DNA of 64,000 nucleotides from Dictyostelium discoideum (lineage: Eukaryota): contig CM000155.2 in NCBI GenBank assembly GCA_000004695.1, positions 352,001-416,000 on the forward strand, in the 5' to 3' direction. The notes beneath the pieces are model-generated. The model did no database searches. It had not been told where the DNA came from and was given only the letters and a program-made list of their open reading frames with translations. Positions within the stretch are counted from its first letter, which is position 1. Each line of letters begins with the position of its first letter. Shown piece after piece: positions 396 through 51,015 of the stretch. The position numbers and the translations under genes were made by a program.

Positions 396-559
396 ATGAA
401 ATTTATTATATTATTTTTTATTTTATATTTAGTTTCTGATACATTAGGATCTTTAAATGAACCAGTTGTCAAGAGTAAATATTTTAAATATAAATATAAT
501 TTAATTTTTTTTTTTTATTGTTTTTATTGTTTGGGTTATTTTTATTTCTCAAATTTAAT

Positions 560-621
<62 letters not shown>

Positions 622-3592
622 TTTGAATTATATTTGTTATTTACTATTTTTAATTTTTTAATATTAAAGTCTCCAAATATTCAGCTATTGTTTATTTTTT
701 ATATCATTGTTAATGTCATTAATAACTATAACTAGTTATTAATATAAATAAAAATCAATCATTTTGTAGATATATTATCTATTTATGTATTTTATAAGAT
801 ATTGATAATTTCCAACACTAATTTTTAATTTTTTGTTTGGTTCATTATTATTTTTTTAAAAATTGTTCAATGTTTTAACCACTTTTCAATGTAATTAAAG
901 ATATTTGCAATTGTTTATTAAAAAAAAAAAAAAAAATTGTTTGTTATTTTATTAAAAAAAAAAGAGCTACTGTTCATTTTTTAATAAATTAATTTTAAAT
1001 CAATATCTATAACAATTGATATTAATAAATAATAATCATTTAATAGATACATTATCTATATTTTTTGTAATTTTTTTAAAAAGAAATCAATAGTTTCCAA
1101 CACTAATTTTTTCTTATGATTTTATTTTAATTTCAGATTTTACATGCACAAAACAATCATTGGAATATACATATGATATTGATAGTACATATTATACAAA
1201 ATGGATTTTTTCAGATTTGGAATATGAATTGGTTTTTGAATGTAAAAATAATAGCAAAGAAAGAACATGTACTGCTGGTATGTCCATTGATATTGCTAAA
1301 AATTTACATGGTCAAATAAAGATGTGCGGAACTGATAATAATAGTGTATTAGATTGCCATTCGAATTACGAAGAATATTATCCAAAGCCAATTATTGAAG
1401 GTGACTTTAAACCATCTACCAAAGGTGGTCCTACTATTATGAAAGGTTATTATTTGGCAGTTGGTGCATACTACTATAACATTATCCCTTATACTAGATT
1501 GGGTATTATAGGTGATGTTCATAGTAACTCTATAGATGTCACAAATTTAATACTAGACTATAAAGGTGGTTGTGGCCCAAGAACTATTCAATGGCCAAAT
1601 GATTTTAAATATAGTTTCAATCATTCAAATCCAATCATTGAAAATATTTTTATTGAAGGTTCATCTTTTATATCAAAAGGTTCTAATTTTTGTAATTCTT
1701 CTGATTCAATTCAAATTTATTTAGATGGTGTTCAAATTGATAAATCAAAAATAAAATCAATTGATCATGAGCAGTTTGAAATAATTTACACTCAACTATA
1801 TTCAAAATCAATCAATGTTAAAATAGTATCTGGTGGACTTGAATCGAATATTTACAAATTGGATTTTAAACCTATACCTTTAAAAATTAATAGTGTTCCA
1901 AGATTAAAAGGTGGTTCAATTACAATAATTGGTGAAAGACTATCTTCACAAGTAAATAATTCAACAATCATTGTTAAAATTGGTCAATATGATTGTAAAA
2001 ATGTAATCTCATCAAAAAATGAAATTCTCTGTAATTTAGAATCGGTTCCAAATGTTGAAAAAGTTAAATTGGTAGATTTACAAGTTAATATCTCAATAAA
2101 TGGTATTTTTAATGAAAATAATTTATTATTCTCATTCGATATACCAATAATATCAGATTTTATACTTCCACAAGGTGAAGTTAAATTAGTTGGTGATTGT
2201 TTTGGTTCTTCACAATTGACTCAAGTTAAAATTGACGATGTATTACAATCCAATATAACAATTAATATTAATGAAAAAGAAACAACACTTTCATTTAAGC
2301 CAATTAAACCAATTAAAAAATCAAAGTTATATATAATTGTCAATGGTACAAAATCAAATACTATTGAAATTGATTCATCATTTTTTGTAAAAAGTGTTCC
2401 ATCTTCACCTTCAGTAAATGGTCAAATTGTAAACTTTACTCTTTTCAATATAAATCCAAATAATGTTAATGCAACACCAATTATGATTTTTCAAGATAAT
2501 AGTTCAATAAAAGCAATTGATTATAAAAATTCAAATGAATACTCAACTCACACATACTCTTTTGATATTCCAAAAAGTTGTGGGAGAAATGAAATTACAA
2601 TTTTAATTGGAGACCAACTAACCCGTACTGAAATTTATTATGAATTACCAATAATATCAAGTTGTTCAATTGTTTCAAATCAAATGATTAAATGTCTTGG
2701 TAATTTTTTAAATTATTTAGATTTATTTAAAAATGGTAAAATTAAAATACAATTTTCAAATATGGTAATAATTGATAATATTCCAAACAATCCAATTATT
2801 TTTATGAGTGATTCATTTTCATTCCCAATGAAGCCAGAGTATAGTTCAAGTGATATATATCTTATTGTTTGTGATGAAACTTCTCTAGATTTTAAAGTTG
2901 ATATAACTCCATCGCTTAAATTTGTGAGCCAATCTCTTGTTTTCAACTCCACTGGTGGTGAATTATTAATTAATGGTGAAAACTTAAATGAAAATACAAT
3001 TTACAATACATCTGTATATTGCTTTTCAAATAAACAAGTTTATAATTGTTCATTTATAAACAATACATCTATATCATGTGATATTGAATTGTTAGGTCCA
3101 TTCGATCAACTTTGTAAAATCAAATTTAATAGTAAAGATGAGAATAATAACATTTCAATATCATATTATCCTCCATTAGTTTTAAATTCAACAACGATTT
3201 CAAAATCATCAACTGGTGGAATTATTACTATTTTTGGTAATGAATTTTATAATCAAATTGATTCAATTACAGTTGGTAAAAGTAAATGTTTAAACTCTAC
3301 ATTTATAAATTCAACATCGATTTCATGTTTTGTAGAACCTTCAAATTTTAATATTAACCAAACTGAACAACAAAAAAAACAATATGTTAACATTATAATT
3401 AATGGTAAAAGTGGTGGTAATAATTTAATAATTTATTCTGGTAATTCAAATAGAATTGATGAAAATAACAAATCAAATAAAAATACAATTGACGAAAAAC
3501 AAACCAATAATGAAATCAAAAATGAATCTATTAAAAGAAATATAAATTTTATATTATTTATAATTATATTCTCAACAATTTTAATCATATAA
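396..3592 (+). CDS. IPT/TIG-domain cell-surface glycoprotein, Tgr(tiger)-family-like, copy 1. Model is join(396..474,1137..3592), about 844 aa. It has a signal peptide, several IPT/TIG repeats, many N-x-S/T sites and a hydrophobic extreme C-terminus, so it looks GPI-anchored or secreted.
   Basis: Exon 1 encodes [26 protein letters not shown], a signal peptide. The donor is AAGA|GTAAAT at 474/475 and the acceptor is tttcag| at 1136, with phase 1 preserved. IPT motifs follow the P..G..GGxITI.GxxF...V.xG...C pattern ([15 protein letters not shown]...[35 protein letters not shown]). The protein ends [17 protein letters not shown]. Confidence 0.85.
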
Positions 3593-4010
3593 TTTAATTT
3601 ATTAATTTCATTGTAAAAAAAAAAAAAAATAAAACTCCAACCAAAAACAATTATTGGGTATATATAAAAAATGATTATTTTTGGTGGGTTAAAAATAAAA
3701 TATAATACAATAATAAATTTTGAACTTATTTTTTTTTTTTTATTTTTTGATAATTTTTTTTTTTTTAATTATTTTTAAAATAATTATTTTTTTGTTTTTA
3801 CTATTTGATAAGTGTGATTGTGAATATTAATAATTTAAATAAAATATAAAATTAAAAATGATTAAAAATATAACCACTTATCATAAAATACTTTTTTTGG
3901 CAGTGGTTGAAAAAAAAAAAAAAAATAATAATATTCATTTCAATTAAAAAAAACACATCCAAAAAAGTTTAATAAAAAATAAATAGTATTCTAAAATGAT
4001 GAAAGAAACA

Positions 4011-4043
4011 CCAATTGGTGGGTGTGGTAAACTTGACACAGTG
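4011..4043 (+). promoter_or_regulatory. Second conserved G-rich block ccaattggtgggtgtggtaaacttgacacagtg (copy at 7523..7553) about 390 bp upstream of the copy-2 and copy-3 starts
   Basis: GGTGGGTGTGG core. It is retained in both inter-copy spacers despite the AT-rich, indel-rich surroundings. Confidence 0.35.
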
Positions 4044-4398
4044 TTTAATAAACATGATGAGTAATATTGAAAATCATACAACAAAACTGATAAAAATAAA
4101 TTAGTGTGGGAGTGTGTGTTGAAAAACATTTTTCAATAAATTATTTGATTGTTTTTTTTTAATTTACTATTGAAGCATCGTTACCTTAATTTTATTATTA
4201 TTATTATTATTATTTTTTTTTTTCTTTAATATTTTTTTTAATTATTATTATAATTTTTATTTTTTTTAATTATTAATATTTTTGTTTTTATATTTTTTTA
4301 ATTATTAATATTTTTTATTTTTTTATTTCAAATCATAAATTATTTAACATCCTCAAAAAAACAATTTTAATATTAAAATAATAATAGTAAATCAACAA

Positions 4399-4451
4399 TG
4401 AAAATTATTATATTTTTTTTTATTTTATATTTATTTTCCGATACATAAGGA
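4399..4451 (+). pseudogene. Disrupted signal-peptide exon of Tgr-like copy 2. It has an in-frame TAA (TTA to TAA) and a 9-nt deletion relative to copies 1 and 3.
   Basis: Copy 2 reads atgaaaattattatattttttttt...tccgatacaTAAggatctttagttgtcaagagtaaatat. Copies 1 and 3 read ...gatacaTTAggatctttaaatgaaccagttgtcaagagtaaatat. Confidence 0.6.
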
Positions 4452-4649
4452 TCTTTAGTTGTCAAGAGTAAATATATAAATTAAAATAATTTTAATTTTT
4501 TTTAGTTTTCATTATATCTATATGTACAAAATATATATGTGTCTTAGATAATCATTGAATAGATACATTATTTATATTTTGTATTTTTTTAAAAAGAAAT
4601 CAATGGTTTCCAACTCTAATTTTTTCTAATATTTACATTTTAATTTCAG

Positions 4650-7105
4650 ATTTTACATGCACAAAACAATCATTGGAATATACATATGATATCGATAGTA
4701 CATATTATACAAAATGGATTTTTTCAGATTTGGAATATGAATTGGTTTTTGAATGTAAAAATAATAGCAAAGAAAGAACATGTACTGCTGGTATGTCCAT
4801 TGATATTGCTAAAATTTTACATGGTCAAATAAAGAAGTGCGGAACTGATAATAATAGTGTATTAGATTGCCATTTGAAATACGAAGAATATTATCCAAAG
4901 CCAATTATTGAAGGTGACTTTAAACCATCTACCAAAGGTGGTCCTACTATTATGAAAGGTTATTATTTGGCAGTTGGTGCATACTACTATAACATTATCC
5001 CTTATACTAGATTGGGTATTATAGGTGATGTTCATTGTAACTCTATAGATGTCACAAATTTAATACTAGACTATAAAGGTGGTTGTGGCCCAAGAACTAT
5101 TCAATGGCCAAATGATTTTAAATATAGTTTCAATCATTCAAATCCAATCATTGAAAATATTTTTATTGAAGGTTCATCTTTTATATCAAAAGGTTCTAAT
5201 TTTTGTAATTCTTCTGATTCAATTCAAATTTATTTAGATGGTGTTCAAATTGATAAATCAAAAATAAAATCAATTGATCATGAGCAGTTTGAAATAATTT
5301 ACACTCAACTATATTCAAAATCAATCAATGTTAAAATAGTATCTGGTGGACTTGAATCGAATATTTACAAATTGGATTTTAAACCTATACCTTTAAAAAT
5401 TAATAGTGTTCCAAGATTAAAAGGTGGTTCAATTACAATAATTGGTGAAAGACTATCTTCACAAGTAAATAATTCAACAATCATTGTTAAAATTGGTCAA
5501 TATCATTGTAAAAAGGTAATCTCATCAAAAAATGAAATTCTATGTAATTTAGAATCGGTTCCAAATGTTGAAAAAGTTAAATTGGTAGATTTACAAGTTA
5601 ATATCTCAATAAATGGTATTTTTAATGAAAATAATTTATTATTCTCATTCGATATACCAATAATATCAGATTTTATACTTCCACAAGGTGAAGTTAAATT
5701 AGTTGGTGATTGTTTTGGTTCTTCACAATTAACTCAAGTTAAAATTGACGATGTGTTACAATCTAATATAACAATTAATATTAATGAAAAAGAAACAACA
5801 CTTTCATTTAAGCCAATTAAACCAATTAAAAAATCAAAGTTATATATAATTGTCAATGGTACAAAATCAAATACTATTGAAATTGATTCATCATTTTTTG
5901 TAAAAAGTGTTCCATCTTCACCTTCAGTAAATGGTCAAATTGTAAACTTTACTCTTTTCAATATAAATCCAAATAATGTTAATGAAACACCAATTATGAT
6001 TTTTCAAGATAATAGTTCAATAAATGCAATTGATTATAAAAATTCAAATGAAAACTCGACTCACACATACTCTTTTGATATTCCAAAAAGTTGTGGGAGA
6101 AATGAAATTACAATTTTAATTGGAGACCAACTAACCCGTACTGAAATTTATTATGAATTACCAATAATATCAAGTTGTTCAATTGTTTCAAATCAAATGA
6201 TTAAATGTCTTGGTAATTTTTTAAATTATCTAGATTTATTTAAAAATGGTAAAATTAAAATACAATTTTCAAATATGGTAATAATTGATAATATTCCAAA
6301 CAATCCAAATATTTTTATGAGTGATTCATTTTCATTCCCAATGAAGCCAGAGTATAGTTCAAGTGATATATATCTTATTGTTTGTGATGAAACTTCTCCA
6401 GATTTTAAAGTTGATATAACTCCATCGCTTAAATTTGTGAGCCAATCTCTTGTTTTCAACTCCACTGGTGGTGAATTATTAATTAATGGTGAAAATTTTA
6501 ATGAAAATACAATTTACAATACATCTGTATATTGCTTTTCAAATAAACAAGTTTATAATTGTTCATTTATAAACAATACATCTATCTCATGTGATATTGA
6601 ATTGGTAGGTCCATTCGATCAACTTTGTAAAATCAAATTTAATGGTAAAGATGAGAATTATAACATTTCAATATCATATTATCCTCCATTAGTTTTAAAT
6701 TCAACAACGATTTCGAATTCATCGATTGGTGGAATTATTATAATTTTTGGTAATGAATTTTATAATCAAATTGATTCAATTACAGTTGGTAAAAGTAAAT
6801 GTTTAAACTCTACATTTATAAATTCAACATCGATTTCATGTTTTGTAGAACCTTCAAATTTTATTATTAATCAAACTGAACAACAACAACAACAATATGT
6901 TAACATTACAATTAATAACAAAAGTGGTGGTAATAATTTAATAATTTATTCTGGTAATTCAAATAGAATTGATGAAAATAATAAATCAAATAAAAATACA
7001 ATTGATGATAAACAAACCAACAATGAAATCAAAAATGAATCCATAAAAAGAAATATAAATTTAATTTTATTTATAATTATATTCTCAACGATTTTAATCA
7101 TTTAA
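4650..7105 (+). CDS. Tgr-like IPT/TIG glycoprotein copy 2, main exon. Acceptor is tttcag| at 4649. It is 97-98% identical to copy 1 and has the same hydrophobic C-terminus. Because the upstream signal-peptide exon is broken, this is a possible pseudogene or a product lacking a signal peptide.
   Basis: The ORF 4673..7105 begins at an in-frame TTG. The reading frame stays open back to the acceptor at 4650. Alignment to copy 1 is nearly gap-free. Confidence 0.7.
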
Positions 7106-7943
7106 TTAAATTTATTACTTTCGTTATAAAAAAAATTATACTCCCACCAAAAACAATGATTGAATATATATAAAAAATGATTATTTTTAGTGGTTTTGTG
7201 TTAAATAAAAAAAAAAAAAATACAATAATAAATTTTGAACATGTTGTTTTTTTTTTTTTATATTTTTTTTTTTTTCTAATTATTTTTATAATAATTATTT
7301 TTTTGTTTTTGCTATTTGATAAGTGTGTTATTGTGAATTTTGATAATTAAAATAATATATAAAATCAAAAATAATTAAAAATATAACCACTTCTCATAAA
7401 CTACTTTTTATGGTAGTGGGTGAAAAAAAAAAAAATAATAATTTTCATTTCAATTAAAAAAAACAAGCCTAAAAAATTTTAATACAATTAATAGTTTTCT
7501 AATATGATGAAAGAAACATCAAGTGGTGGGTGTGGTAAACTTGGCACACAGTGTTAAAAAAAAACAATATGAGTAATTTTGAAAATCATACAACAAAACT
7601 GATAATATTAAAATAAATTAGTGGGATGTGTGTGTTGAAAAACATTATTTAATAAATTATGTGATTTGTTTATTTTAATTTAATATTGAAGCATTACCTT
7701 ATTGTTTTTATTATTATTTTTTTTTTTTTTTTTTTTTTTTTTTATTATTATCAATATTTTTTTTTTTTAATTATTATTAATATTTATGTTTTTTTAATTA
7801 TTAATATTTTTGTTTTTATATATTATTTTAATTATTATTTTTTTATTATTTTTTTTATTTCAAATCATTTACAGTAATAATAAATTATTTAACATCCTCA
7901 AAAAAACAATTTCATTATTAAAATAATAAATAGTAAACCAAAA

Positions 7944-8105
7944 ATGAAATATATTATATTATTTTTTATTTTATATTTAGTTTCTGATACATTAGGATCT
8001 TTAAATGAACCAGTTGTCAAGAGTAAATATTTTAAATATAAAAATAATTTTATTTTTTTTTTTTTATTGTTTTTACTGTTTGGGTTATTTTTATATCTCA
8101 AATTT

Positions 8106-8151
<46 letters not shown>

Positions 8152-11100
8152 TTTGATTATTGTTGTTATTTACTATTTTTAATTTTTTAATATTAAAGTC
8201 TCCAAATATTCAGCTATTGTTTATTTTTTTATATCATTGTTAATGTCATTAATAACTATAACTAGTTATTAATATAAATAAATATCAATCATTTTGTAGA
8301 TATATTATCTATTTATGTATTTTATAAAAGATATTGATAATTTCCAACACCAATTTTTAATTTTTTTATTTGGTTCATTAATATTTTTTTAAAAAATTTT
8401 CAATGTTTTAACCACTTGTCAATGTAATTAAAGATATTTGCAATTGTTTATTAAAAAAAAAAAAAAAAAAAAAATTGTTTGTTATTTTTTTAAAAAAAAA
8501 AAAAAAGAGCTACTGTTCATTTTTTAATAAATTAATTTTAAATTAATATCTATAACTATTAATATTAATAAATATTAATCATTTATTAGATACATTATCT
8601 CTATTTTTTGTATTTTTTTAAAAAGAAATCAATGGTTTCCAACACTAATTTTTTCTTATGATTTTATTTTAATTTTAGATTTTACATGCACAAAACAATC
8701 ATTGGAATATACATATGATATTGATAGTACATATTATTCAAAATGGATTTTTTCAAATTTGAAATATGAATTGGTTTTTGAATGTAAAAATAATAGCAAA
8801 GAAAGAACATGTACTGCTGGTATGTCCATTGATATTGCTAAAAATTTACATGGTCAAATAAAGATGTGCAGAACTGATAATAATGGTGTATTAGATTGCC
8901 ATTCGAATTACGAAGAATATTTTCCAAAGCCAATTATTGAAGGTGACTTTAAACCATCTACCAAAGGTGGTCCTACTATTATGAAAGGTTATTATTTGGC
9001 AGTTGGAGTAATTCCTTACTTTACTATTATCCCTGATACTATATTGGGAACAATAGGTGATATTTTTAGTAACTCTATAGATGTCACAAATTTAATACTA
9101 GACTATAAAGGTGGTTGTGGCCCAAGAACTATTCAATGGCCAAATGATTTTAAATATAGTTTCAATCATTCAAATCCAATCATTGAAAATATTTTGATAG
9201 AAGGTTCATCTTTTATATCAAAAGGTTCTAATTTTTGTAATTCTTCTGATTCAATTCAAATTTATTTAGATGGTGTTCAAATTGATAAATCAAAAATAAA
9301 ATCAATTGATCATGAACAATTTGAAATAATTTACACTCAACTATATTCAAAATCAATAAATGTTAAAATAGTATCTGGTGGACTTGAATCGAATATTTAC
9401 AAATTGGATCTTAAACCTATACCTTTAAAAATTAATAGTGTTCCAAGATTAAAAGGTGGTTCAATTACAATAATTGGTGAAAGACTATCTTCACAAGTAA
9501 ATAATTCAACAATCATTGTTAAAATTGGTCAATATGATTGTAAAAATGTAATCTCATCAAAAAATGAAATTCTCTGTAATTTAGAATCGGTTCCAAATGT
9601 TGAAAAGGTTAAATTGGTAGATTTACAAGTTAATATCTCAATAAATGGTATTTTTAATGAAAATAATTTATTATTCTCATTCGATATACCAATAATATCA
9701 GATTTTATACTTCCTCAAGGTGAAGTTAAATTAGTTGGTGATTGTTTTGGTTCTTCACAATTGACTCAAGTTAAAATTGACGATGTGTTACAATCCAATA
9801 TAACAATTAATATTAATGAAAAAGAAACAACACTTTCATTTAAGCCAATTAAACCAATTAAAAAATCAAAGTTATATGTAATTGTCAATGGTACAAAATC
9901 AAATACTATTGAAATTGATTCATCATTTTTTGTAAAAAGTGTTCCATCTTCACCTTCAGTAAATGGTCAAATTGTAAACTTTACACTTTTCAATATAAAT
10001 CCAAATAATGTTAATGCAACACCAATTATGATTTTTCAAGATAATAGTTCAATAAAAGCAATTGATTATAAAAATTCAAATGAATACTCAACTCACACAT
10101 ACTCTTTTGATATTCCAAAAAGTTGTGGGAGAAATGAAATTACAATTTTAATTGGAGACCAACTAACCCGTACTGAAATTTATTATGAATTACCAATAAT
10201 ATCAAGTTGTTCAATTGTTTCAAATCAAATGATTAAATGTCTTGGTAATTTTATAAATTATCTAGATTTATTTAAAAATGGTAAAATTAAAATACAATTT
10301 TCAAATATGGTAATAATTGATAATGTTCCAAACAATCCAATTATTTTTATGAGTGATTCATTTTCATTCCCAATGAAGCCAGAGTATAGTTCAAGTGATA
10401 TATATCTTATTGTTTGTAATGAAATTTCTCCAGATTTTAAAGTTGATATAACTCCATCGCTTAAATTTGTGAGCCAATCTCTTGTTTTCAACTCCACTGG
10501 TGGTGAATTATTAATTAATGGTGAAAATTTTAATGAAAATACAATTTACAATACATCTGTATATTGCTTTTCAAATAAACAAGTTTATAATTGTTCATTT
10601 ATAAACTATACATCTATCTCATGTGATATTGAATTGGTAGGTCCATTCGATCAACTTTGTAAAATCAAATTTAATGGAAAAGATGAGGAGTATAACATTT
10701 CAATATCATATTATCCTCCATTAGTTTTAAATTCAACAACGATTTCGAATTCATCAATTGGTGGAATTATTACAATTTTTGGTAATGAATTTTATAATCA
10801 AATTGATTCAATTACAGTTGGTAAAAGTAAATGTTTAAACTCTACATTTATTAACTCAACATCAGTTTCATGTTTTTTAGAACCTTCCAAAATTATTATT
10901 GATCAAAGCAAACAACAACAGCAACAACAACAACAACAACAACAATATGTTAACATCACGATTAATGGTAAAAGTGGTGGTAATAATTTAATTATTTATT
11001 TTGATAATTCAATTATTGAAGTTAAAAACCAATCAAGCCAAAGTGATAAAAACAACAACAACAACAACAACAACAATGGTAAAAATATAAATAATGGTGA

Positions 11101-11863
11101 TAGTAAAACTGATGGTAGAAGTTTTTATGAAAAAAATAAAAAATGGATAACAGTATTAATAATAATTGGAAGTTTGGCATTACTTTTATTTATCTTTTTT
11201 GGTATAATTTATTGTAATAGAAAAAACGGTACTGTTATCTATTGGAAATATATTATGTGTCGCGGAATCAAAGAAAAAAAATATAAATTTAAAAATAGAA
11301 AAGAGATAAAACAAATACAAGAATTAAGACATACATTGGATAATGCAGAGACAATTTTTGCTGACTTTGAATTAGATAATATAATAACTTATTCAGAGTA
11401 TCAACTTACACCCGAAAATCGTCTACGAAAAGAACAACAAGAATTAGCTCGAGAAAATTATATTGAAACTTACCCAGATTATTATTTACATATAAATAAA
11501 ACTAAAAATTTACCAAATAATGATTCATTACCTCCAAATCAAGTTGAAAATTTACCAAATAATAATTCATTACCTCCAAATAAAATTGAAAATTCATTAC
11601 CTCCGAATCAAACTGAAAATTTACCAAATAATAATTCATTACCTCCAAATCAAACTGAAACATTACAAGAAGATTCTTTACCTCCAAATCAAACTGAAAC
11701 ATTACCAGAAGTTTCATTACCTCCAAATCATATTGAAACATTACCAGAAGTTTCATTACCTCCAAATCAAATTGAAACATTACCAGAAGTTTCATTACCT
11801 CCAAATCATATTGAAAAACTAACAGACAATTCATCATCATCTCAAGACCCAAGCTCTTCATAA
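7944..11863 (+). CDS. Tgr-like IPT/TIG type-I transmembrane glycoprotein, copy 3, full length. Model is join(7944..8022,8679..11863), about 1087 aa. After the ectodomain it has polyQ and polyN linkers, a TM helix ([23 protein letters not shown]) and a roughly 230-aa cytoplasmic tail with eight SLPPNQTE-type repeats.
   Basis: Exon 1 is identical in structure to copy 1, with donor GTAAAT at 8023 and acceptor ttttag| at 8678. The ORF 8702..11863 continues through the TM segment. A basic stop-transfer run (CNRKNG) follows the TM. Confidence 0.85.
11500..11830 (+). repeat. Coding tandem repeat of 39-42 nt, about 8 units, encoding (N/T)LP(NNN/EV)SLPPN(Q/H)(T/I)E in the cytoplasmic tail of copy 3
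   Basis: aatttaccaaataataattcattacctccaaatcaaactgaa recurs with small substitutions. Both alternative frames also stay open (ORFs 11502..11861 minus and 11520..11822 plus), which is typical of a repeat. Confidence 0.9.
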
Positions 11864-12637: not shown

Positions 12638-14239
12638 ATGTCATATAATGGTATTGGAATAAAGACAGCAAGAGGTACAGGTACAAATGGTTATGTACAA
12701 AGAAATTTATCATATGTTAATACAAATTATAATAAAACTGAATATAGTATAAAAAAAGAAAGAGAATCAATTCTTGAACAACAAAAAAAACAACAATCAC
12801 AACCAATTAAAAAAGCAAATTTAGAATTAATTGAACATAATAGAAAAAGAAGAATTGAAGTTGAAATTGCACAATGGGCAGAAGAAAATGATTTATATGA
12901 AAAATATAAAGATCAAGAAGAATTGGATGCATTATTAGCAAAGAAAAGAGAAGAATTATTAGAGAAACAACAACAACAACAACAAAATAATAATAATAAT
13001 AATACCACTGAAGAAGAAGAAGAGGATGGGCAATATTCAAAACTAACAGATTCACATTCAAAACAATATCAAAAAGAAAAAGAGATAAAAAGATTCACAG
13101 ATGCATTAAACATTAAAGATTATATACCTGGTGCTTCTTTAGATAAGCAAGTTCAACAAGAACGTAAAGAAAAAAGACATCAAGAATATTTAGAAAGACA
13201 AAAAGAAAGAGAAAGAAAACAAAAAGAACATGAAAAACTTGAAAGAGATAGACAAAGAGAATACGATAGAAGAAGTAGAGATTCAGATAGAGATATTGAT
13301 AGATATAAAAGTACTAAAGATAGAGATAGAGATAGCGATAGAGATAGACATAGAGACAGAGACAGTGATAGATATAGAAGTAGTAGAGATAGTAGAGATA
13401 GTAGAGGTAGTAGAGATAGTAGAGATAGTAGAGATAGTAGAGATATTAGAGGTAGTAGGGATAGTAGGGATAATAGAGATAGTAGAGATAGAAGATATAG
13501 ATCTCGTAGTCGTTCAAATTCTCCTTCTTATTCAAAATCAACATCCCCAAGTAAGAGAGATAGAGATAGAAAGTCATATAGAGATCGTTCAGATTCAGAG
13601 TCATCATCAAGTAGTAGAGAAAGAGATCGTTCACATTCAATATCACCAAAAAGAGAAAAGAATACAACAACAACAACAACAAAAACAGCAATAAAGGAGA
13701 GATCAGTTTCTCCACCAAATATTGCTAGAAACAGATCACCACCACATAGAGATAGAGGTAATAAAAAAGAAGAAGAGGGGGATAAATCAATGTCACCACC
13801 AAGAAATAGAAGTGGTAGAAATAGATCGCTTTCACCATCACAATCACCAGCAATAAAAAGAAGTGTTAAAAAAGATGAAGAGGAGGATAAATCAATGTCA
13901 CCACCAAGAAATAGAAGTGGTAGAAATAGATCACTTTCACCATCGCAATCACCAACAATAAAAAGAAGTGTTAAAAAAGATGAAGAATCAATGTCACCAC
14001 CAAGAAATAGAGTTGGTAGAAATAGATCACTTTCACCAGCAATAAAAAGAAGTGTTAAAAAAGAAGAAAAGGAAGAAGAATCAATGTCACCACCAAGAAA
14101 AAGAAATAAAGATGATGAGGAGGAGCAGGAGGAGGAAGAGGATCTGAGATCAATATTTCCTTCAAGAAAAAGACAAAACACTCAAGACCATGAATCACCA
14201 CAAAGAAAAAGACTCGATTCTTCCTCTGATACTGATTAA
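12638..14239 (+). CDS. SRRM2/Cwc21-family splicing-associated protein. It has an N-terminal cwf21 motif and an RD/RS-rich domain.
   Basis: The N-terminus MSYNGIGIKTARGTGTNGYVQRNLSYV matches the conserved MYNGIGLxTPRGSGTNGYVQRNLS start of SRRM2/Cwc21. (RDS/RSR)n and SPPRNRSGRNRSLSP repeats follow. It is a single exon. Confidence 0.85.
   Translation: MSYNGIGIKTARGTGTNGYVQRNLSYVNTNYNKTEYSIKKERESILEQQKKQQSQPIKKANLELIEHNRKRRIEVEIAQWAEENDLYEKYKDQEELDALLAKKREELLEKQQQQQQNNNNNNTTEEEEEDGQYSKLTDSHSKQYQKEKEIKRFTDALNIKDYIPGASLDKQVQQERKEKRHQEYLERQKERERKQKEHEKLERDRQREYDRRSRDSDRDIDRYKSTKDRDRDSDRDRHRDRDSDRYRSSRDSRDSRGSRDSRDSRDSRDIRGSRDSRDNRDSRDRRYRSRSRSNSPSYSKSTSPSKRDRDRKSYRDRSDSESSSSSRERDRSHSISPKREKNTTTTTTKTAIKERSVSPPNIARNRSPPHRDRGNKKEEEGDKSMSPPRNRSGRNRSLSPSQSPAIKRSVKKDEEEDKSMSPPRNRSGRNRSLSPSQSPTIKRSVKKDEESMSPPRNRVGRNRSLSPAIKRSVKKEEKEEESMSPPRKRNKDDEEEQEEEEDLRSIFPSRKRQNTQDHESPQRKRLDSSSDTD
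13786..14100 (+). repeat. Three copies of an intragenic repeat of about 110 nt (SMSPPRNRSGRNRSLSPSQSPAIKRSVKKDEEE) within the SRRM2-like CDS
   Basis: Repeated nucleotide blocks beginning gataaatcaatgtcaccaccaagaaatagaagtggtagaaatagatc... Confidence 0.8.
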
Positions 14240-17673: not shown

Positions 17674-20427
17674 TTATGATTTTCCAAAAAATAAGGATTT
17701 TCTCTTATTAATTGTTTCTTTATCTTTTTGACTAGATAATGATGGTGATCGAGTTGAATTTGTTGAATTTGAAGATGAAAGAGATGAAGTTGAAGAGACT
17801 GAATTATTGTCGACAATATGAGAAAGATGTGGTGGTGATGATGAAGTTGGTAATTGTGTGTCACTTTCTTTAAAGTTTGGATTTGACTTTGAAGATTGTA
17901 AATTTGAACCTTCCTGACTATTACTTAAACTACTAGGATTACTTGAATTATTTGATGATGATGATGTTGAATCAACCAAACCTTTAGTTGGGGGGGGATT
18001 ATTATTATTATTATTATTATTATTTACACTTGAATTTAAATTATTTTCTTTTTCTTTTTCTTTTTCTTTTTCTTTTCCTTTTCCTTTTCCCTTTTCTTTT
18101 TCTTTTTCCTTTTCTTTTTTAACGGATACATTATTTGTTGGTGGTGGTTGTTCTTTTTCTTTTTCTTTTTCTTTTTCTTTTAATTTCTTTTCTTGATCAG
18201 CTTTTTTCTCTTGTTCAGCTTTTTCAATTTTTTCTAATTTCTTTAAATATTTTTCATTCTTTTTAGTCATTTCTTTCTTTTCTTTCTCTAATCTCTTTTC
18301 ACGTTCTTTATTTTCTTTATCGATTTTAGTTAATGATTTTGAACTTGTATTCTTTCTTTCCAATGTTTTTGGTGAATTTGTAAGATATACAGGTGTTGAT
18401 GGGAATTGCATAATATCATTAATATTATCTTTATTACCACCAGTGGTGGTGGTGGTGGTAGTAGCAGTGGTAGTAGCAGTGGCAGAGTTATTATTAGTTG
18501 ATGATGATAAATTTGAAGTTGAAGCTAAAGCATGTTGTTGATCAGGTGTAAGGAAAAAGTTTGCACCCAATTTTGCCATTGATGATTTTGAAGTGGTTGC
18601 AGTACCACTAACAATAATATCTTGACTACTTGTTGAACGATTAAATGATGCACCAAAAGTATTACCATGAGTTGAATGTGCATTTGTTTGAATATTCATT
18701 GCAGTTAATGAATTTGTTGATGATGCTTGCTCTGTTGTATTTGGTAATAATTCTAAAGAACTCTCTGGTGTTGTTGTTGTTGTTGTTGTCATTGTTGCTG
18801 CTAATCTATCATTATTATTACCATTATTACCACCCATATAATTTAACATTATATCACCACCCATTTTCATACCACCATTCTTTTTCATACGAATTGTTTT
18901 ATACATTCTTTGATTATTTGATTTAGTAGTTGTAGTTGTAGTAGTAGTAGTAGTATTTGTTGAAGATGCATCACTACCTTGTGAAGAAATTGATTCAACT
19001 GATGGATCTGGTTTTAATTTACCTTCTTCATATTCTGGTGATGATGGTACTGAAATAGCATTATTATTATTACTATTATTATTATTGGTTGTATTTGTAG
19101 TTGTATTACCACCCTGCACAATTGGTGAAGAAACTTCAGAAGTTGAAGCAGCTGGAGTTTGTTGTGAAATCGTTTGAGTATTTGAATTTGATACAGTTGC
19201 TGTACCTCCAACATTACCACTTGTTTGTTGTTGTTGTTGTTGCTGTTGTTTTGAAGTTAATAATTCTTTTAATGCTTGTAATTCTTGTTGTAATAATTTT
19301 GAATTCTCTTTTTCATCATCTAATAATGATAAAGTTTCATGATGTGAAGAGATTAATTCTTTCATTCTTGCAACTAAATTATCGGCTGTTTTCTTATTCA
19401 ATTCTGATTTCTTTCTCTCCTCTTCCAATAACATCGATGTCTTATGATGATTATTCTTTTCATCAGTGACAGAGCCCTTCAAAGAGTTGATTTCAAACAT
19501 TGCATTCTGATCCAACTGTCCACCATTCTTTTCAGCGAATCCAATTATCTTTCTACCTTGGAATAAAAGATTATCCAAATTTTGTAATCTCTCTTTCTCT
19601 TGATTCAATTGTTGTTGTGTATCTGATAATTGTTTTTTCAATTGTACAATTAATACTTGATCTGCTGCAGATCCAGTAGTGGTGGTATTACCACCACTAC
19701 TACCAGTACTATTGTTGTTGTTGTTTGTAATATTTGAAATTTCAGTATTATAAGATTCTAATTTTTGATTTAATAAAATTTGTTCATTTAAATTTAATTG
19801 AGTTTTTTGGTGAAGTTGTCTCTCTTTTTCCAATTCTTTCTCCAAGAGTGAATTTGATTCTTCGATATGAGTGATTTCGTTCATTAGAGTTTGTAAATTG
19901 TTTATGTTTTCTTTGGAGATGGTTTGTTTCTCTTTGTCCAATTGCTCACATTCCAATATTACAATCTCCAATTGTTTGGTGAGATTCTCTTTCTCGGCTT
20001 CTGTCTCTTTATAGATTTCAAATAATTCCAGTTTAGTGTTTTTCTCTTGTTTTAATTGTGCTTCTAAAATTTGTCTTTCCTCTTCAACAGTCTGTTTATA
20101 GACTGTGATTTGCTCAACTAGACTATTGACTGTCTCTTTGGTATCCAACACTCTTGATTTCTCTTTCAACAATTTCATCTTCAAATTCTTTACTTCTGCT
20201 GAATCTTCATTTTGAATTTGAACACATGATAAATCAAATGAATCTGAATCTGAATCTGAGTCTGAATCTGAATCTGATGATGATGATGATGATGATGAGT
20301 CCTCTTCTTCATCCTCTTCCTCCTCTTCCTCCTCGTAACTATCTTCATCTAATTTTGATTTTATAACATTTTCAACATTATTAATGTTGTTCTCTTCTTC
20401 ATCCTCTAAATTATTATTATTGTTCAT
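17674..20427 (-). CDS. Large low-complexity coiled-coil protein. It has an acidic N-terminus with an (SD)n run, central heptad-rich coiled coils, S/T/N/Q-rich segments and a KEKEKE/GKGKGK tract.
   Basis: A 917-aa ORF with EEEEEEDEEED, DSDSDSDS and long charged heptad regions (LKMKLLKEKSRVLDTKETVNSLVEQITVYKQTVEEERQILEAQLKQEK...). The frame stays open upstream to about 21040 without an ATG, so a 5' exon or extension is possible. Confidence 0.7.
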   Translation of the reverse strand: MNNNNNLEDEEENNINNVENVIKSKLDEDSYEEEEEEEDEEEDSSSSSSSSDSDSDSDSDSDSFDLSCVQIQNEDSAEVKNLKMKLLKEKSRVLDTKETVNSLVEQITVYKQTVEEERQILEAQLKQEKNTKLELFEIYKETEAEKENLTKQLEIVILECEQLDKEKQTISKENINNLQTLMNEITHIEESNSLLEKELEKERQLHQKTQLNLNEQILLNQKLESYNTEISNITNNNNNSTGSSGGNTTTTGSAADQVLIVQLKKQLSDTQQQLNQEKERLQNLDNLLFQGRKIIGFAEKNGGQLDQNAMFEINSLKGSVTDEKNNHHKTSMLLEEERKKSELNKKTADNLVARMKELISSHHETLSLLDDEKENSKLLQQELQALKELLTSKQQQQQQQQTSGNVGGTATVSNSNTQTISQQTPAASTSEVSSPIVQGGNTTTNTTNNNNSNNNNAISVPSSPEYEEGKLKPDPSVESISSQGSDASSTNTTTTTTTTTTKSNNQRMYKTIRMKKNGGMKMGGDIMLNYMGGNNGNNNDRLAATMTTTTTTTPESSLELLPNTTEQASSTNSLTAMNIQTNAHSTHGNTFGASFNRSTSSQDIIVSGTATTSKSSMAKLGANFFLTPDQQHALASTSNLSSSTNNNSATATTTATTTTTTTGGNKDNINDIMQFPSTPVYLTNSPKTLERKNTSSKSLTKIDKENKEREKRLEKEKKEMTKKNEKYLKKLEKIEKAEQEKKADQEKKLKEKEKEKEKEQPPPTNNVSVKKEKEKEKEKGKGKGKEKEKEKEKENNLNSSVNNNNNNNNNPPPTKGLVDSTSSSSNNSSNPSSLSNSQEGSNLQSSKSNPNFKESDTQLPTSSSPPHLSHIVDNNSVSSTSSLSSSNSTNSTRSPSLSSQKDKETINKRKSLFFGKS

Positions 20428-24633: not shown

Positions 24634-25962
<1,329 letters not shown>

Positions 25963-26000
25963 TGTATATAAAATTAATAAATATACAAATACACAAATAT

Positions 26001-26034
<34 letters not shown>

Positions 26035-26346
26035 TTAAAAGATTTCTTGTTTTTTTGAAAAATAAAAAAAAAAAAAAAATTTTAAAAAAAAAAATTATTT
26101 GAAAATTAGATTTTCTAGCTAAAAATTTGGTTTGTAAGGGTGGTAGTGGTAATATTTTTTAAAAAAAAAAAAAAAAATAAAAATAAAAAAAAAAAAAAAA
26201 ATAAAAATTTGTTTTTTTATTTTTGTTTTTTTTTTTTAAACCAATCTTTTTTTTTTTCTTTCTCAAATTCTCACATTTTTACTTATTTATTTATTTATAT
26301 AAATATATTATAGATACCCAAAAACATTCAACACTGTTTCGTTGAT

Positions 26347-26389
<43 letters not shown>

Positions 26390-26402
26390 GAATATATTAA
26401 AA

Positions 26403-28189
26403 ATGAACTTTTTCAAGAGTAACAGTAACAGTAACAGTGATACTAGTAGTAGCAGTAGTAATAATACATCAAATGATATAAAACCAGAAAAAAAAGATTA
26501 TAAACATATAGATGATCCATTTCGTATTCATAGATTAACTTGCGAAAATAATATTGAAGAAATTAAGAAATATTTAGATAGTGAACCATATTATAAAGAG
26601 TTTATTGATATTAGAGATACCCATGGTTATTCAGCTTCTCATTATGCAGCACATGTATGTATTTTTTCTTTTTTTTTTTTTCCATTAATATTTTAGTGCA
26701 CTATTAACTTTATCAAACATATATATATATATAGTTTGGACATAAAAATATTATCGAATTATTATTAAAATATGGGGCAGATCCAACTAAAAAGAGCGCT
26801 GCAGGTTGGTCAGTAATTCAGGAAGCATGTGGAAGAAAAGATAGAGAAATTGTAACATTACTATTACAACAAATAAAGAATAAAATTGAAAATGAATTCA
26901 CAAAAAGAATGCCAATATTAGTTTCAGCACTTGAAAATGTAAATAATATACCCCCTCCCCATATAATTTTATAAACTAAATATATATATATATATATATA
27001 ATAACTAATAATTTTTATTTTTTTATTTATTTTTTAGATACCAGATTTTGAAATGGAATTAAAATGGGAAGTTAAAAGTTGGGTACCATTAGTAACTAGA
27101 TTTTGTCCATATGATACTTATAAAATTTATAAACAAGGATCATCATTTAGAGTTGATACATCAATTATTGGAATGGATGGTATTAAATTCATTAGAGGGG
27201 ATTTATCATTTTTATATAAATCTCAAAGACTATTTTCAATGGATAATATAAAACATACATATTCAGAGATGGAAATTGTAGCTTCAAAAAATCCAAAAGT
27301 ACATGATGAAGAAGTAGATATACTTTTAGATCAAACTATGAATAGAGTAAAATTAATGACTGATGAAATCGTTTTCACAAAATCAAAAACTTGGTTTGGT
27401 AATGAAAAAACAGAGAAAATCGGTGACAATGCTGATTGGAATGCTAAAATGTTTGATGTTACAAATGTAGATTTAAAAATTATGGCAAGAAAACCAAAAA
27501 GACAACCAAATCATCCACATTTTAATAAAGATCAACAACAATTAGAAGGTAAAGATAGTAGTAGTAGTGGTAGTGATGATGATGATAATAATAATAATAA
27601 TAATAATAATAAAATTACAACAAATATAGATGATAATAATAATAATAATGATGAAGATGAACTTAATCAAAATCCAATTGAACAAACAAAGAAATATATT
27701 GAATCATTAAAAAATGTAACTTATGAAATTAGAGATAGTACATTGAAATCAAAAATAATGGAACCAGGTTATTTTAAAGCACCAAAGAATTTTGATCCTT
27801 ATACACATGAACAAAATATTAACAAGTCAAAGATTAAAACTCAAGGTTTATTATGTGATGGTGAAACCGTTAGTGAAAGACATAAATATTTCAAGGGTAC
27901 AATTTGGATATCTGAGGAATTCCCTAGAAAAGTCACTGATCTATTACCAATTTTTGAAGTTTTATCACCAACCAATAAATTGTTTAGTAGATTATGTGAA
28001 TTTATCTCTTTGAAATTACCATCAGATGGTTTTCCTGTTAAATTGGATTTACCATTATTTCCAACTATTTCTGCAACTGTTATCTTTACAAAATATATTG
28101 AAAAGCCTGTTGATAAAAATTTATTTACAATTCCATCTCATTATATTGTAAAAACAACCCCACCATCTTCAACAACATTTACAAAATAA
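26403..28189 (+). CDS. ANKRD13-family protein with ankyrin repeats and a GPCR-chaperone-type domain. Model is join(26403..26654,26735..26938,27038..28189), about 535 aa.
   Basis: Donors are CAT|GTATGT at 26655 and AAT|GTAAAT at 26939. Acceptors are atatatag| at 26734 and tttttag| at 27037, all phase 0. WEVKSWVPLVTRFCPYDTYKIYKQGSSFRVDTSIIGMDGIKFIRGDLSFLYK matches ANKRD13A [52 protein letters not shown]. An ANK repeat (GYSASHYAAHFGHKNIIELLLKYGADP) spans the first intron. Confidence 0.8.
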
Positions 28190-28221
<32 letters not shown>

Positions 28222-28553
28222 TTAAAATTAATTATTTAATTTTTTAAAATTCTATTTATAGATTAAAAAATATCTATTTGATAGAGTTTTTTTTTTTTTG
28301 TAATTGTTTAATAAAAGATTGATTAAAAAAGTGGATATTTTTTTTTTTTCTTTTTCTAATTTTTTTTTTTTTTTTTTTTTTTTTTATATTTTTCTCTAAA
28401 AAAATAATGGTTTTTTTAAACATTTTAAAAACATGTTTTGTTTTTTTAAATTATATTTTTTTTTTTTTTTTTTTTCATTAACTTGGTCACATTGATCTAT
28501 TTATATACCAATTTTAAAATTGAAATAAAAATAATATACAAATAAAAAAAAAA

Positions 28554-29585
28554 ATGATTAAAGAAGAAAATAAATTTCTTTTTTATATTTGGAGAAATTT
28601 ATATTTAAAAAATAAAATTTTACAACAAGTTAAATATTTAAATAATAATATTTTTATAGTTGAAATAAAAAGTAAAGAAGAGTTATTAAATCATAAATTT
28701 AGAGATTTAATAAAAGTTATAATTTATAATTCAAATGAAGATATTTGTAAAGGTGATTTACCATCAAATATTGTTAAATTATCATTTGGTAGAGGTTTTA
28801 ATAAACCAATACCAAGTGGAGCAATTCCTTTAACCGTAAAGTCAATAACATTTGGAATGTTTTTTAATCAAAAATTAACTTTAGGAATAGTTCCATCAAG
28901 TTGTAAATTATTAAAATTTGGTGAATTTTATAATCAAAATTTAATACCAAATCAATCAATTCCACCAAGTGTTGAAAATTTAGAATTTGGGTTTATGTAT
29001 AATGAAAAACTAATTAAAGGTTCAATTCCATCAAGTGTTACTTATTTAACATTTGGGAATCAATTTAACCAAATACTAACAGATGGAATCATTCCATCGA
29101 GTGTGAAAACACTGATATTCGGTGACAGTTTCAATTTACCATTATTTAAAAATGCAATTCCATCAAGTGTGCAAACCTTGAAATTCGGTTTAAAATTCAA
29201 ACAATATTTAAACAAAAATTCAATTCCACCAAGTGTGAAATCATTAACCTTTGGAAACGGGTTTAATAAACCATTAACCAATGAATCAATTCCATCAAGT
29301 GTTGAATCATTAACATTTGGTAATTGTTTCAATAGAGAATTACTACCAGGTGTAATTCCACCAAGTGTCAAATCATTAACATTTGGAAATGATTTTAATA
29401 AACCATTAACCAAACAATCAATTCCATCAAGTGTTATCTCATTAACATTTGGTAATAAATTTAATCAACCATTACCTGACGGAGTGCTACCTCCAAATCT
29501 TTTAACTTTAAAATTTGGTAACTCCTTTAACCAACCGAAATCAAATATATCAATTCCTCAAACTGTTAAATCATTAAATTTTTAA
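28554..29585 (+). CDS. FNIP-repeat-containing protein, the Dictyostelium-type FNxxIP ~22-aa repeat, with about 12 repeats
   Basis: Repeated units LxFGxxFNxPLxxxxIPSSVxxL (LSFGRGFNKPIPSGAIPLTVKS, LTFGNQFNQILTDGIIPSSVKT and others). It is a single exon. Confidence 0.85.
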   Translation: MIKEENKFLFYIWRNLYLKNKILQQVKYLNNNIFIVEIKSKEELLNHKFRDLIKVIIYNSNEDICKGDLPSNIVKLSFGRGFNKPIPSGAIPLTVKSITFGMFFNQKLTLGIVPSSCKLLKFGEFYNQNLIPNQSIPPSVENLEFGFMYNEKLIKGSIPSSVTYLTFGNQFNQILTDGIIPSSVKTLIFGDSFNLPLFKNAIPSSVQTLKFGLKFKQYLNKNSIPPSVKSLTFGNGFNKPLTNESIPSSVESLTFGNCFNRELLPGVIPPSVKSLTFGNDFNKPLTKQSIPSSVISLTFGNKFNQPLPDGVLPPNLLTLKFGNSFNQPKSNISIPQTVKSLNF

Positions 29586-29634
29586 ATTTTTAAATTTATT
29601 GAATTTTTATAAATTTTATTATAATTGATGTTTG

Positions 29635-31021
29635 TTAAAATCTTCCAGCTTGGTAGTCTTTAAAAGCTTGTTGAATTTCAGCTTCAGTATTCATAACGAA
29701 AGGACCATATCTTGCAACGGGTTCATTCAATGGTTTACCAGCTACTAATAAAAAACGTACACCTTGATCTGAATCACCAGCGATAACATCGATTCTATTT
29801 CTATCCTGACCACCTTGTAAAATACCAATTTGTGAGGTTTTAACTTCTTTTCCTTTTGCCTTTGGACCGAATCTAGCAGACCCTTCAAAAACGTAAACAA
29901 AAGCTTGATGATCATTTGGAATCTCTTCTGAAAATGTTGAACCTGGTGATAACTTAACATCTAAATATAATGGATTCGTTACGATTCCAGCGATTGGACC
30001 TGTAATATTTTTATAAACACCTGCAATAATTCTAGTTTTACCTCCACCCTGTTCATCAACTTCAGGTATATCTTTAGCGGGAATATCTTGATAACGTGGT
30101 TCCATCATTTTATGAGATTTTGGTAAATTTACCCAGAGTTGAAATCCCCAAACCACCTTATCACGATCAACAATTGGCATTTCTGAATGAATTATACCTT
30201 TACCAGCCGACATCCATGACACAGAATTTGCTTTTAATAATCCATAATTATGTTTATGATCTTTATGCTCCATAGTACCTCTTAACATATATGTTACAGT
30301 TTCAAATCCTCTATGAGGATGTGATGGAAATCCTGCTATATATTGATTTGGATCATCACTTTTTTTTTTTTTTTTTTTTTAATTATTAATAATTTTATTT
30401 GATTTAATTTAATTTATAAAAAAATAAATATTAAAATTTATTATTTACCTTTTAAATTCATCTAATAATAAAAATGGATCCAAGTCACTTATTGGTCCAC
30501 CAATAATTCTTCTTAATTTTACTCCTAAATTAAAAAAAAAAAAAAAAAAAATGGGATTAGTGGTTTTTCCTAAAAAATAAAAAAAAAATAAAATAATTAC
30601 CAGCTCCATCTGAAGTCATCATTCCAGTACTAACTTTACTAACTATTCTTGAACTCATTTCTATAATATTATTATTTTTATTTATATCCTCTTCTTCTTT
30701 AATTTTATTATTATTATTATTATTATCTTTTAATTTTTGTTTTTTATTATTTAATAAATTAATATTATTAATATTATTATTATTATTATCCTTTTTATTA
30801 TTATTACTATTATTATTTAATGGTTTAAAAGTATTTTGTTGTTCTTGTTGTTGTTGTTGTTGTTCTTGTTCCCTTTGCTGTTGTTGTAAATATGTAGTTG
30901 TGGTTGTAGTTGTTGAAGATAAAAAATAATATAGTAAAGAGGCTATTACAATTATAAAGATAATAGTATATTGATTTTTATATTTATTATTATTTGTTCG
31001 GTTATGTTTATGAGAAACCAT
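29635..31021 (-). CDS. Pirin (bicupin). The core model is join(30601..30658,30449..30524,29635..30358), 285 aa starting MSSRIVSKV. The frame stays open upstream to an ATG at 31021, which would add about 120 aa with a hydrophobic segment and a Q/N-rich linker (a longer-isoform hypothesis).
   Basis: LDPFLLLDEFK|...|SDDPNQYIAGFPSHPHRGFETVTYML...WMSAGKGIIHSEMP...LWVNLP...GPFVMNT matches human pirin (DPFLLFDEFKGG..GFPDHPHRGFETVSYLL...WMTAGRGILHAEMP..LWVNL...GPFVMNT). Donors are GCTG|GTAATT at 30600 and AAAAG|GTAAAT at 30448. Acceptors are atttag| at 30525 and aaaaag| at 30359. Exon lengths of 58, 76 and 724 nt keep the frame. Confidence 0.85.

Positions 31022-41608: not shown

Positions 41609-41643
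<35 letters not shown>

Positions 41644-48747: not shown

Positions 48748-48778
<31 letters not shown>

Positions 48779-50983: not shown

Positions 50984-51015
<32 letters not shown>

Follow-up and report, generated by a model that had tools for sequence, protein, structure and literature searches.

TgrB1 and TgrC1, two members of the tgr (Tiger, IPT/Ig) gene family, form the allorecognition receptor-ligand pair of Dictyostelium discoideum, and the TgrA/H/I/O clade of the same family is without known function. We analysed a 64,000-nucleotide stretch of chromosome 6 of D. discoideum AX4 (GenBank assembly GCA_000004695.1, contig CM000155.2, positions 352,001 to 416,000 of the forward strand; G+C about 20%), hereafter the window, with positions counted from its first letter. 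The first 12 kb of the window are the 3' end of a same-strand tandem tgr array and hold its final three units, which we term copies 1, 2 and 3. Two gene forms are present in this array: the same ectodomain is followed either by a short hydrophobic end (copies 1 and 2, the short form) or by a membrane helix and a cytoplasmic tail (copy 3, the full-length form). The analysis centres on the short end, which may act as a glycosylphosphatidylinositol (GPI) attachment signal or, failing that, anchor the protein in the membrane without a tail.

Like copy 3, TgrB1 and TgrC1 have a signal peptide, IPT/TIG and Ig-like E-set repeats, a single membrane helix and a cytoplasmic tail, and like the array genes they are clustered, duplicate rapidly, are accompanied by many pseudogenes and vary in their N-terminal region. 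In contrast to the array genes, which are unpaired, same-strand and near-identical, they form a head-to-head, dissimilar pair with a shared promoter; partners within the array would differ in their anchor and not in their ectodomain. The paralog tgrB2 resembles the short forms in that it has lost helix and tail, lies beside full-length relatives and has apparently been kept. It is highly polymorphic and was strongly expressed in the one strain assayed, and tgr members without a membrane helix are therefore already published. Whereas tgrB2 is simply helix-less, however, the short forms end in a conserved GPI-signal-like module and are the amplified form. Contact site A (csA, gp80) is a homophilic adhesion glycoprotein that aggregating D. 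discoideum cells carry on a lipid anchor. It is encoded by a single gene, and its anchoring has been shown experimentally; the anchor is reported to resist PI-PLC. It serves as a working analogy for the proposed short forms, being a glycosylated adhesion ectodomain of the secretory pathway with a lipid anchor and no cytoplasmic tail, but it has no sequence relationship to them, and its anchor is experimental where theirs is predicted. The human tandem paralogs Fc-gamma-RIIIA (transmembrane) and Fc-gamma-RIIIB (GPI-anchored), and the neural cell adhesion molecule (NCAM) forms NCAM-120 versus NCAM-140/180, which arise by alternative splicing, place nearly the same Ig-type ectodomain on either a helix with a signalling tail or a GPI anchor, in the case of Fc-gamma-RIII from neighbouring duplicates as in the array. 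The Fc-gamma-RIII pair is unlike the array in that a point difference in a homologous C-terminus separates its members, while the short end of the array is a non-homologous module, and NCAM is unlike it in that its forms are spliced from one gene.

The three copies are collinear and all lie on the + strand, with exon-2 open reading frames at 1160-3592, 4673-7105 and 8702-11863. Their gene models have two exons, a signal-peptide exon (79 nt in copies 1 and 3) being joined to the long open reading frame. Copies 1 and 3 match Pfam Ig_TgrO1 (PF24612; 1.9e-33 and 2.9e-31) and TIG (PF01833; 4.2e-12 and 2.1e-11) and no other Pfam domain, and the copies are members of the Tiger (tgr) family with an ectodomain of IPT/TIG and Ig-like E-set type. 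Exon 1 of copies 1 and 3 encodes a signal-peptide-like start, MK(F/Y)..., a family feature recognisable from the sequence alone, and the phase-1 intron that follows this exon is kept in all relatives examined.

In copy 1, the signal-peptide exon (396..474) is followed by a phase-1 donor, GTAAAT, and by a 662-nt intron (475..1136; GT...AG, AT-rich, with a long T run), and exon 2 (1137..3592, stop included) encodes an all-beta Ig/IPT ectodomain, about 790 aa long in the short form, and the short-form end. The product of the two exons, 844 aa in length, is identical to the AX4 protein XP_635224.1; since this reference protein ends at the same stop, the annotation agrees with the short-form gene model. 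A linker of about 35 aa separates the hydrophobic run from the last Ig-like domain. The N/K-rich linker specific to the short form (3450..3547) starts where homology to copy 3 is lost, and the hydrophobic C-terminus (3548..3592) comprises 14 aa with a mean Kyte-Doolittle hydrophobicity of 3.29 (1.98 over the last 20 residues) and the TAA stop at 3590-3592. An AlphaFold2 model of copy 1, with a mean predicted local distance difference test score (pLDDT) of 68, is all-beta up to residue 791, with the last beta-strand at 784-791, a disordered linker at 793-829 and a terminal helix at 826-843.

Copy 3 likewise joins a signal-peptide exon (7944..8022) to a long exon 2 (8679..11863, stop included), in this case encoding ectodomain, linker, membrane helix and cytoplasmic tail, and its two-exon product of 1087 aa is identical to XP_635226.2/Q54EL4. 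The linker of the full-length form (11013..11143), which begins where copies 1 and 2 cease to be homologous, is a polyN stretch with an AAC repeat at 11051-11076. The membrane helix (11144..11212; 23 aa, residues 849-871) is conserved in relatives from other species. The cytoplasmic tail (11213..11860; 215 aa) contains no domain recognised by Pfam, and it carries motifs at both ends that are shared by the tails of full-length relatives, a juxtamembrane NRKN..VYW and a C-terminal L(S/P)PNQI.KL(P/T)D...PSSSS. Tandem repeats within the tail (11494..11834; periods 39, 42 and 69 nt) hold about 10 copies of SLPPNQ(T/I)E(T/N)LP and amplify the C-terminal motif, of which full-length relatives in other species have a single related copy near the C-terminus (e.g. 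LSPNQIQKLPD). As these motifs are conserved across species, the copy 3 tail likely binds something, although the signalling role proposed for it in a first-pass annotation of the window is putative. A solved structure of a relative was sought and none was found.

Homology between the two forms ends at about 3450 in copy 1, 6963 in copy 2 and 11012 in copy 3, and upstream of these points the ectodomain of copy 3 is 96.5% identical in nucleotides to those of its short neighbours. The first-pass annotation had described copies 1 and 2 as ending in a short hydrophobic C-terminus, and one ectodomain with different C-termini as being encoded in separate tandem genes; both statements hold, the stops falling at 3592 and 7105 behind a 14-residue run, but the run does not directly follow the last domain, as the annotation had it, and is set off from it by the linker. 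It was also right that copy 3 is collinear with the others, but not that collinearity ends near 10860, as from 10852 onwards the differences are merely denser and the alignment of the copies persists. Of the polyQ and polyN linkers that it assigned to the copy 3 extension, the polyN tract belongs there, and the polyQ tract lies within the shared part (QQKKQ in one short copy, QQQQQ in the other). Its membrane helix was likewise found, while the tail it had put at roughly 230 aa measured 215 aa.

The short forms could in principle be an annotation artefact, with copies 1 and 2 splicing before their stops onto a downstream exon for helix and tail, a possibility also raised by the first-pass annotation. 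The spacer between copies 1 and 2 (3593..4397) consists of 3' flank and the next promoter and holds no helix- or tail-like exon. When both spacers were compared by tblastn with the helix and tail of copy 3, only low-complexity noise was returned, and both lead straight into the promoter and exon 1 of the next copy. The stop position is the same in all short-form genes examined, 10 of them intact and from three genomes, together with AX4 copies 0 and 2, and the sequence past the stop diverges fast. With the reference protein ending at that stop, and no point found in its favour, onward splicing has in our view almost no chance of being correct.

The published model of a GPI-attachment signal (PMC2571997) comprises four regions: a linker without structure, an attachment site with small residues about it, a spacer covering +3 to +9, and a hydrophobic tail extending as far as the end of the protein. 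The best fit in copy 1 places the candidate attachment (omega) residue at N822, with S at +2, a six-residue spacer (IKRNIN), a hydrophobic run from +9 and the disordered linker in front. N822 belongs to an N-E-S motif (3521-3529, inside the linker) that is invariant across all short forms. The hydrophobic segment continues to the C-terminus with zero residues after it, and a signal peptide is present. A similar layout was seen more widely, in that a hydrophobic run forms the very C-terminus of 6-7 of about 33 long family representatives, each with a small-x-small motif and a spacer of about 6 residues before the run. These representatives belong to D. purpureum, D. firmibasis, D. citrinum and a cryptic species, the last with a seven-gene cluster; in the three named species they are unrelated tail-less Tgr-like proteins. 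The tail-less topology is therefore old and recurrent in Tiger-like proteins.

The short end was further analysed as coding sequence in 10 intact short genes, drawn from AX4, the wild strain ACTFIR (5) and the cryptic sister species ACTFIZ (3). In ACTFIR, four intact short genes stand in one array, and a locus beside a kinase gene has one intact and one frameshifted copy; in ACTFIZ, three intact short genes occupy the locus at which AX4 has another full-length gene (P0003). Among the 10 genes, the ratio of nonsynonymous to synonymous differences per site (pN/pS) was lowest in the short end (0.26), somewhat higher in the bulk of the ectodomain (0.34) and highest, at 0.72, over the N-terminal 120 codons. 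The gene pairs behind these values are not independent, the genes being recent duplicates that recombine, and the tail contributes only about 45 codons. Length variants of the short end (135, 117 and 108 nt) all keep the reading frame. When AX4 is compared with the cryptic species, nucleotide identity is 88-90% in the short end, as in the adjacent ectodomain, and falls to about 70%, with indels, over the 200 nt past the stop. The AX4 copies on their own gave pairwise ratios of nonsynonymous to synonymous substitution rates (dN/dS) of 0.41-0.55 at dS 0.03-0.08, which were uninformative until the genes of the other genomes were added. Taken as sequence comparisons, these results indicate, and do not prove, that the short end is a coding module under purifying selection; gene conversion rather than selection could be partly behind its conservation.

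These data bear on the explanation that the short forms are non-functional by-products of unequal crossing-over, decaying into pseudogenes, with the hydrophobic end an accident of T-rich DNA. Random read-through into the non-coding DNA of the window did produce a hydrophobic end at 2.4% of entry points, but the full pattern of a polar stretch of >=30 aa followed by a 14-aa hydrophobic end arose at only 0.09%. Copies 2 and 0 are disabled, the former by a stop in exon 1 and the latter by frameshifts and an internal duplication; AX4 is reported to have 26 tgr pseudogenes against 38 genes, with most members at low expression, and D. citrinum has an independent 3'-truncated upstream duplicate. Set against this, at least 10 short genes are intact in three genomes and stop at an identical position, their pN/pS lies at 0.26-0.34 with short-end indels in frame only, and the short end is apparently common to a sister subfamily, as described below. 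We therefore regard decay of mere by-products as very unlikely to account for the short forms.

Overall, the best explanation of the short end in this two-form array is a GPI-attachment signal or at least a tail-less membrane anchor, to which we would assign a probability of roughly 0.55 on the sequence evidence. A short-form protein would enter the endoplasmic reticulum by its signal peptide, and the transamidase would recognise the hydrophobic C-terminus and cut near N822 of the N-E-S motif. The ectodomain would then be displayed at the cell surface on a lipid anchor, able to bind without signalling through a tail, while copy 3 would display a near-identical ectodomain and engage cytoplasmic partners through its conserved tail motifs.

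Besides the dependence among the gene pairs noted above, several points weigh against this interpretation. The candidate site is flanked by K (-1) and E (+1), neither of them a small residue, the N-E-S motif is an N-glycosylation sequon as well, and with 14 aa the hydrophobic run is near the lower limit of the lengths usually seen. Of the four short copies that make up part of the AX4-type array, two are disabled, most tgr genes except tgrB1/C1 are weakly expressed in clonal development according to two recent papers, and the tgrA subfamily name that we use below rests on a published description and not on an identifier.

The first of these points also favours a different kind of attachment or release, in which the short forms would be held by a permanent tail-less type I anchor, a helix of 14-18 residues, or be secreted as a soluble factor. 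K and E beside the candidate site are unlike the small residues typical of GPI sites, the AlphaFold2 model shows 826-843 as a single helix, and tgrB2, as mentioned above, is reported to be strongly expressed, in the one strain assayed, without any membrane helix. However, 14 strongly hydrophobic residues without a trailing charge are short for a stable span of the plasma membrane, the hydrophobic run is conserved and would be needless in a purely secreted protein, and the GPI model is matched by a layout that other tail-less Tgr-like proteins also show. Another anchor or secretion is accordingly held to be unlikely, if still deserving of some weight.

The ectodomain itself is most variable at its N-terminus, where pN/pS across 13 genes is about 0.7 against about 0.3 elsewhere (1160-1520, 4673-5030 and 8702-9060 in copies 1, 2 and 3). 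Within this N-terminal part, residues 104-165 are modelled with low confidence. The variable part could be a specificity-determining surface.

Copy 2 departs from the other two units at its 5' end. Its exon 1 (4398..4467) is a 70-nt variant with a 9-bp in-frame deletion and reads MKIIIFFFILYLFSDT before an in-frame TAA (4446-4448), so that translation would stop after 16 codons. The same TAA was seen in an independent assembly, and thus in two assemblies, and the wild strain has the same 70-nt exon-1 variant without the stop. No AX4 protein for copy 2 was present among the database matches, and a newer annotation rescues the gene by means of an upstream start that provides no signal peptide. 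Intron 1 of copy 2 is also much reduced, to 182 nt from the roughly 660 nt seen in copies 1 and 3, and this shorter intron explains why the repeat spacing is 3513 in one case and 4029 in the other (a 516-bp difference). Exon 2 (4650..7105) has remained open and reaches the short-form end, with the hydrophobic run at 7061-7102 and the stop at 7103-7105, and the terminal peptide differs from that of copy 1 by one F>L change. From these features copy 2 is probably a pseudogene, and the open exon-2 frame suggests that its inactivation is recent. The first-pass annotation had counted two short paralogs; both are short-ended, but only one of the two looks functional. With copy 2 and at least one copy to its left disabled, the array evolves by birth and death.

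All relatives from D. citrinum, D. dimigraforme and D. firmibasis used for comparison, and the more distant paralogs, have a membrane helix and tail, and judged by this distribution the helix-plus-tail form is the ancestral state. Two derivations of the short end were considered and rejected as unsupported. The first, that it is the remnant of a truncated membrane helix, was compatible with a MAFFT alignment in which the two are in register, but the statistics were at shuffle level. The score of a local DNA alignment of short end and membrane helix was matched by 87/500 shuffles, a protein comparison of the short end with the copy-3 linker and helix gave a score close to the shuffle mean (965/2000 shuffles reached it), and comparison with the linker and helix of P0003 was at shuffle level too. 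An nhmmer profile built from seven short ends found nothing in the full-length genes (E>1). The second, a duplication-junction model in which the short end derives from DNA upstream of an unduplicated ancestor, found no support either: a scrambled partial copy forms the left edge of the array, and the short-end profile and the spacers returned only low-complexity matches at the D. citrinum and D. dimigraforme loci.

The comparison that did return a signal was with the short-form end of a sister subfamily (...NEKIPSEGVKKQYNIILIIVSIIISFL...), with which the short end gives an ungapped 39-aa alignment whose score was reached by 9/2000 block-preserving shuffles. The sister-subfamily array consists of a remnant, one intact and two frameshifted short genes, and then one full-length gene. 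The short end is thus probably older than the array in the window and shared with the sister subfamily, as far as the alignment can tell. Upstream copies with altered 3' ends also appear to arise repeatedly, as both AX4 and D. citrinum have them: the upstream tandem duplicate of D. citrinum (L004 5347-7992) is cut inside the cytoplasmic tail (...GIRDNVDKVKN*) with its helix kept, and the downstream copy is full length.

Ectodomains and 3' ends do not share one history. The ectodomain of copy 3 is 89.9% identical to that of P0003, and the P0003 ectodomain is closest (93.1%) to wild-strain short forms. Ectodomains thus group by array whereas 3' ends group by form, which points to recombination or gene conversion between the forms, or to cassettes moving between ectodomains. 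Carried further, at least two tgr subfamilies would share, in the short end, an ancient and portable GPI-signal cassette, and recombination would repeatedly set either it or a helix-plus-tail cassette behind one fast-evolving recognition ectodomain, giving a matched homophilic ligand/receptor system for recognition between cells. We consider this full scheme speculative and rather improbable; if true, a single specificity would be made by each array both on a lipid anchor and in a version able to signal, in contrast to the heterophilic TgrB1-TgrC1 system.

The first-pass annotation had gone a different way and seen in the locus a classic receptor with decoy or ligand isoforms. On that explanation the short forms are decoys or ligands paired with the neighbouring full-length receptor, and the tandem layout exists for the pair. 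Copy 3 and its short neighbours are indeed kept 96.5% identical in an ectodomain whose 3' ends differ, the tail with its cross-species motifs is found in copy 3 only, and TgrB1/TgrC1 provides a known receptor-ligand pair within the family. The order of short copies followed by one full-length gene also recurs, at two AX4 loci and in the sister-subfamily array; the second AX4 locus, about 100 kb away, has a short-form-end remnant just upstream of P0003, which encodes 1038 aa. Gene conversion alone, however, predicts high identity in a tandem array. In the wild strain ACTFIR, moreover, arrays of four and two short genes stand without an adjacent full-length gene, in the cryptic species ACTFIZ three short genes take the place of the AX4 full-length gene, and in the cryptic species ACTFIY the full-length-type gene is a pseudogene. 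With short-only arrays in wild strain and cryptic species the arrangement is not conserved, and a fixed receptor-plus-decoy arrangement is not supported. That the layout exists for such a pair is doubtful in our view, while a looser functional relationship is possible.

A candidate third topology, a "helix-less full-length" form predicted for P0010 and P0011, was rejected as a prediction artefact around pseudogene stops. The P0011 locus of ACTFIY (L009 8548-11726) contains in-frame stops and a frameshift, one of the stops just before the helix, and the predictor had spliced around them; P0010 shows the same kind of gap and is probably such an artefact too.

The array continues leftward beyond the window edge. 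In a long-read assembly of an AX4-type strain (GCA_054883475.1, contig JBTAPE010000005.1; L001, L010), a kinase gene comes first and a scrambled partial copy next, after which stand an intact short gene (Q54EL9, 846 aa), a short copy with frameshifts (copy 0) and copies 1, 2 and 3. In this assembly the unit of copies 0, 1 and 2 occurs twice before copy 3. The window matches it at 99.3%, with many small indels among the differences; either the reference represents as one unit a higher-order repeat (about 11 kb) that is really duplicated, or that strain has an expanded array. At the left edge of the array (L001 about 8000-8530), a short-form-end fragment, an unusually G+C-rich junction (TAGGCGCTTTTTTTCCCTGCAGTCAGG) and forward and inverted pieces of exon 2 are found together.

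A published description gives the tgrA cluster as the one cluster of unpaired, same-strand, prolifically duplicating tgr genes. The array is most likely this tgrA cluster, the label being taken from that description and not from a gene identifier; a search of literature and databases for tgrA1-4 names and accessions tied no gene name to the array genes. The array genes are about 50% identical to a chromosome-2 relative.

An Ank/protein-kinase paralog adjoins the tgr array at both AX4 loci and in other genomes, in differing orientations (L001 4316-7298, L002 4042-7065, L004 401-2698, L007 795-3826), which suggests that kinase and tgr genes moved jointly as a segmental duplication. Some 25 kb downstream of the array, at 37289-39673 (+), lies an unrelated surface-type protein with epidermal growth factor (EGF) repeats, one IPT/TIG domain and a ComC supersandwich domain (ComC_SSD 3.7e-57). 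Further neighbours with Pfam matches (39713-43813 (-), 46163-51037 (+) and 24634-33001) are two adjacent genes resembling ATP-binding cassette (ABC) half-transporters, a VPS8 homolog, a protein with a SAE2/CtIP C-terminal domain, an ANKRD13-like protein, an FNIP-repeat protein and a short-chain dehydrogenase fused to SCP2. The open reading frames at 12638-14239 and 17674-20427 had no Pfam match.

The genes of the array were already annotated, and the family and its birth-and-death evolution are known. GPI anchoring of tgr proteins is not mentioned in two recent papers on the family (0 occurrences in the preprint). The advance made here is incremental, with genes and family known and the anchor a prediction. 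It carries a caution for annotation, as hydrophobic runs at a C-terminus can readily be mistaken for membrane helices, and gene predictors that work around the stops of a pseudogene create spurious helix-less models. Self/non-self recognition in social amoebae depends on the tgr family, and within the TgrA/H/I/O clade most intact genes encode a tail-less, probably lipid-anchored form that ends in a conserved module and whose ectodomains are exchanged with those of rare full-length forms. This offers a testable idea of how the proteins may be seated in the membrane, which members of the family can signal, and how the family may separate binding from signalling.

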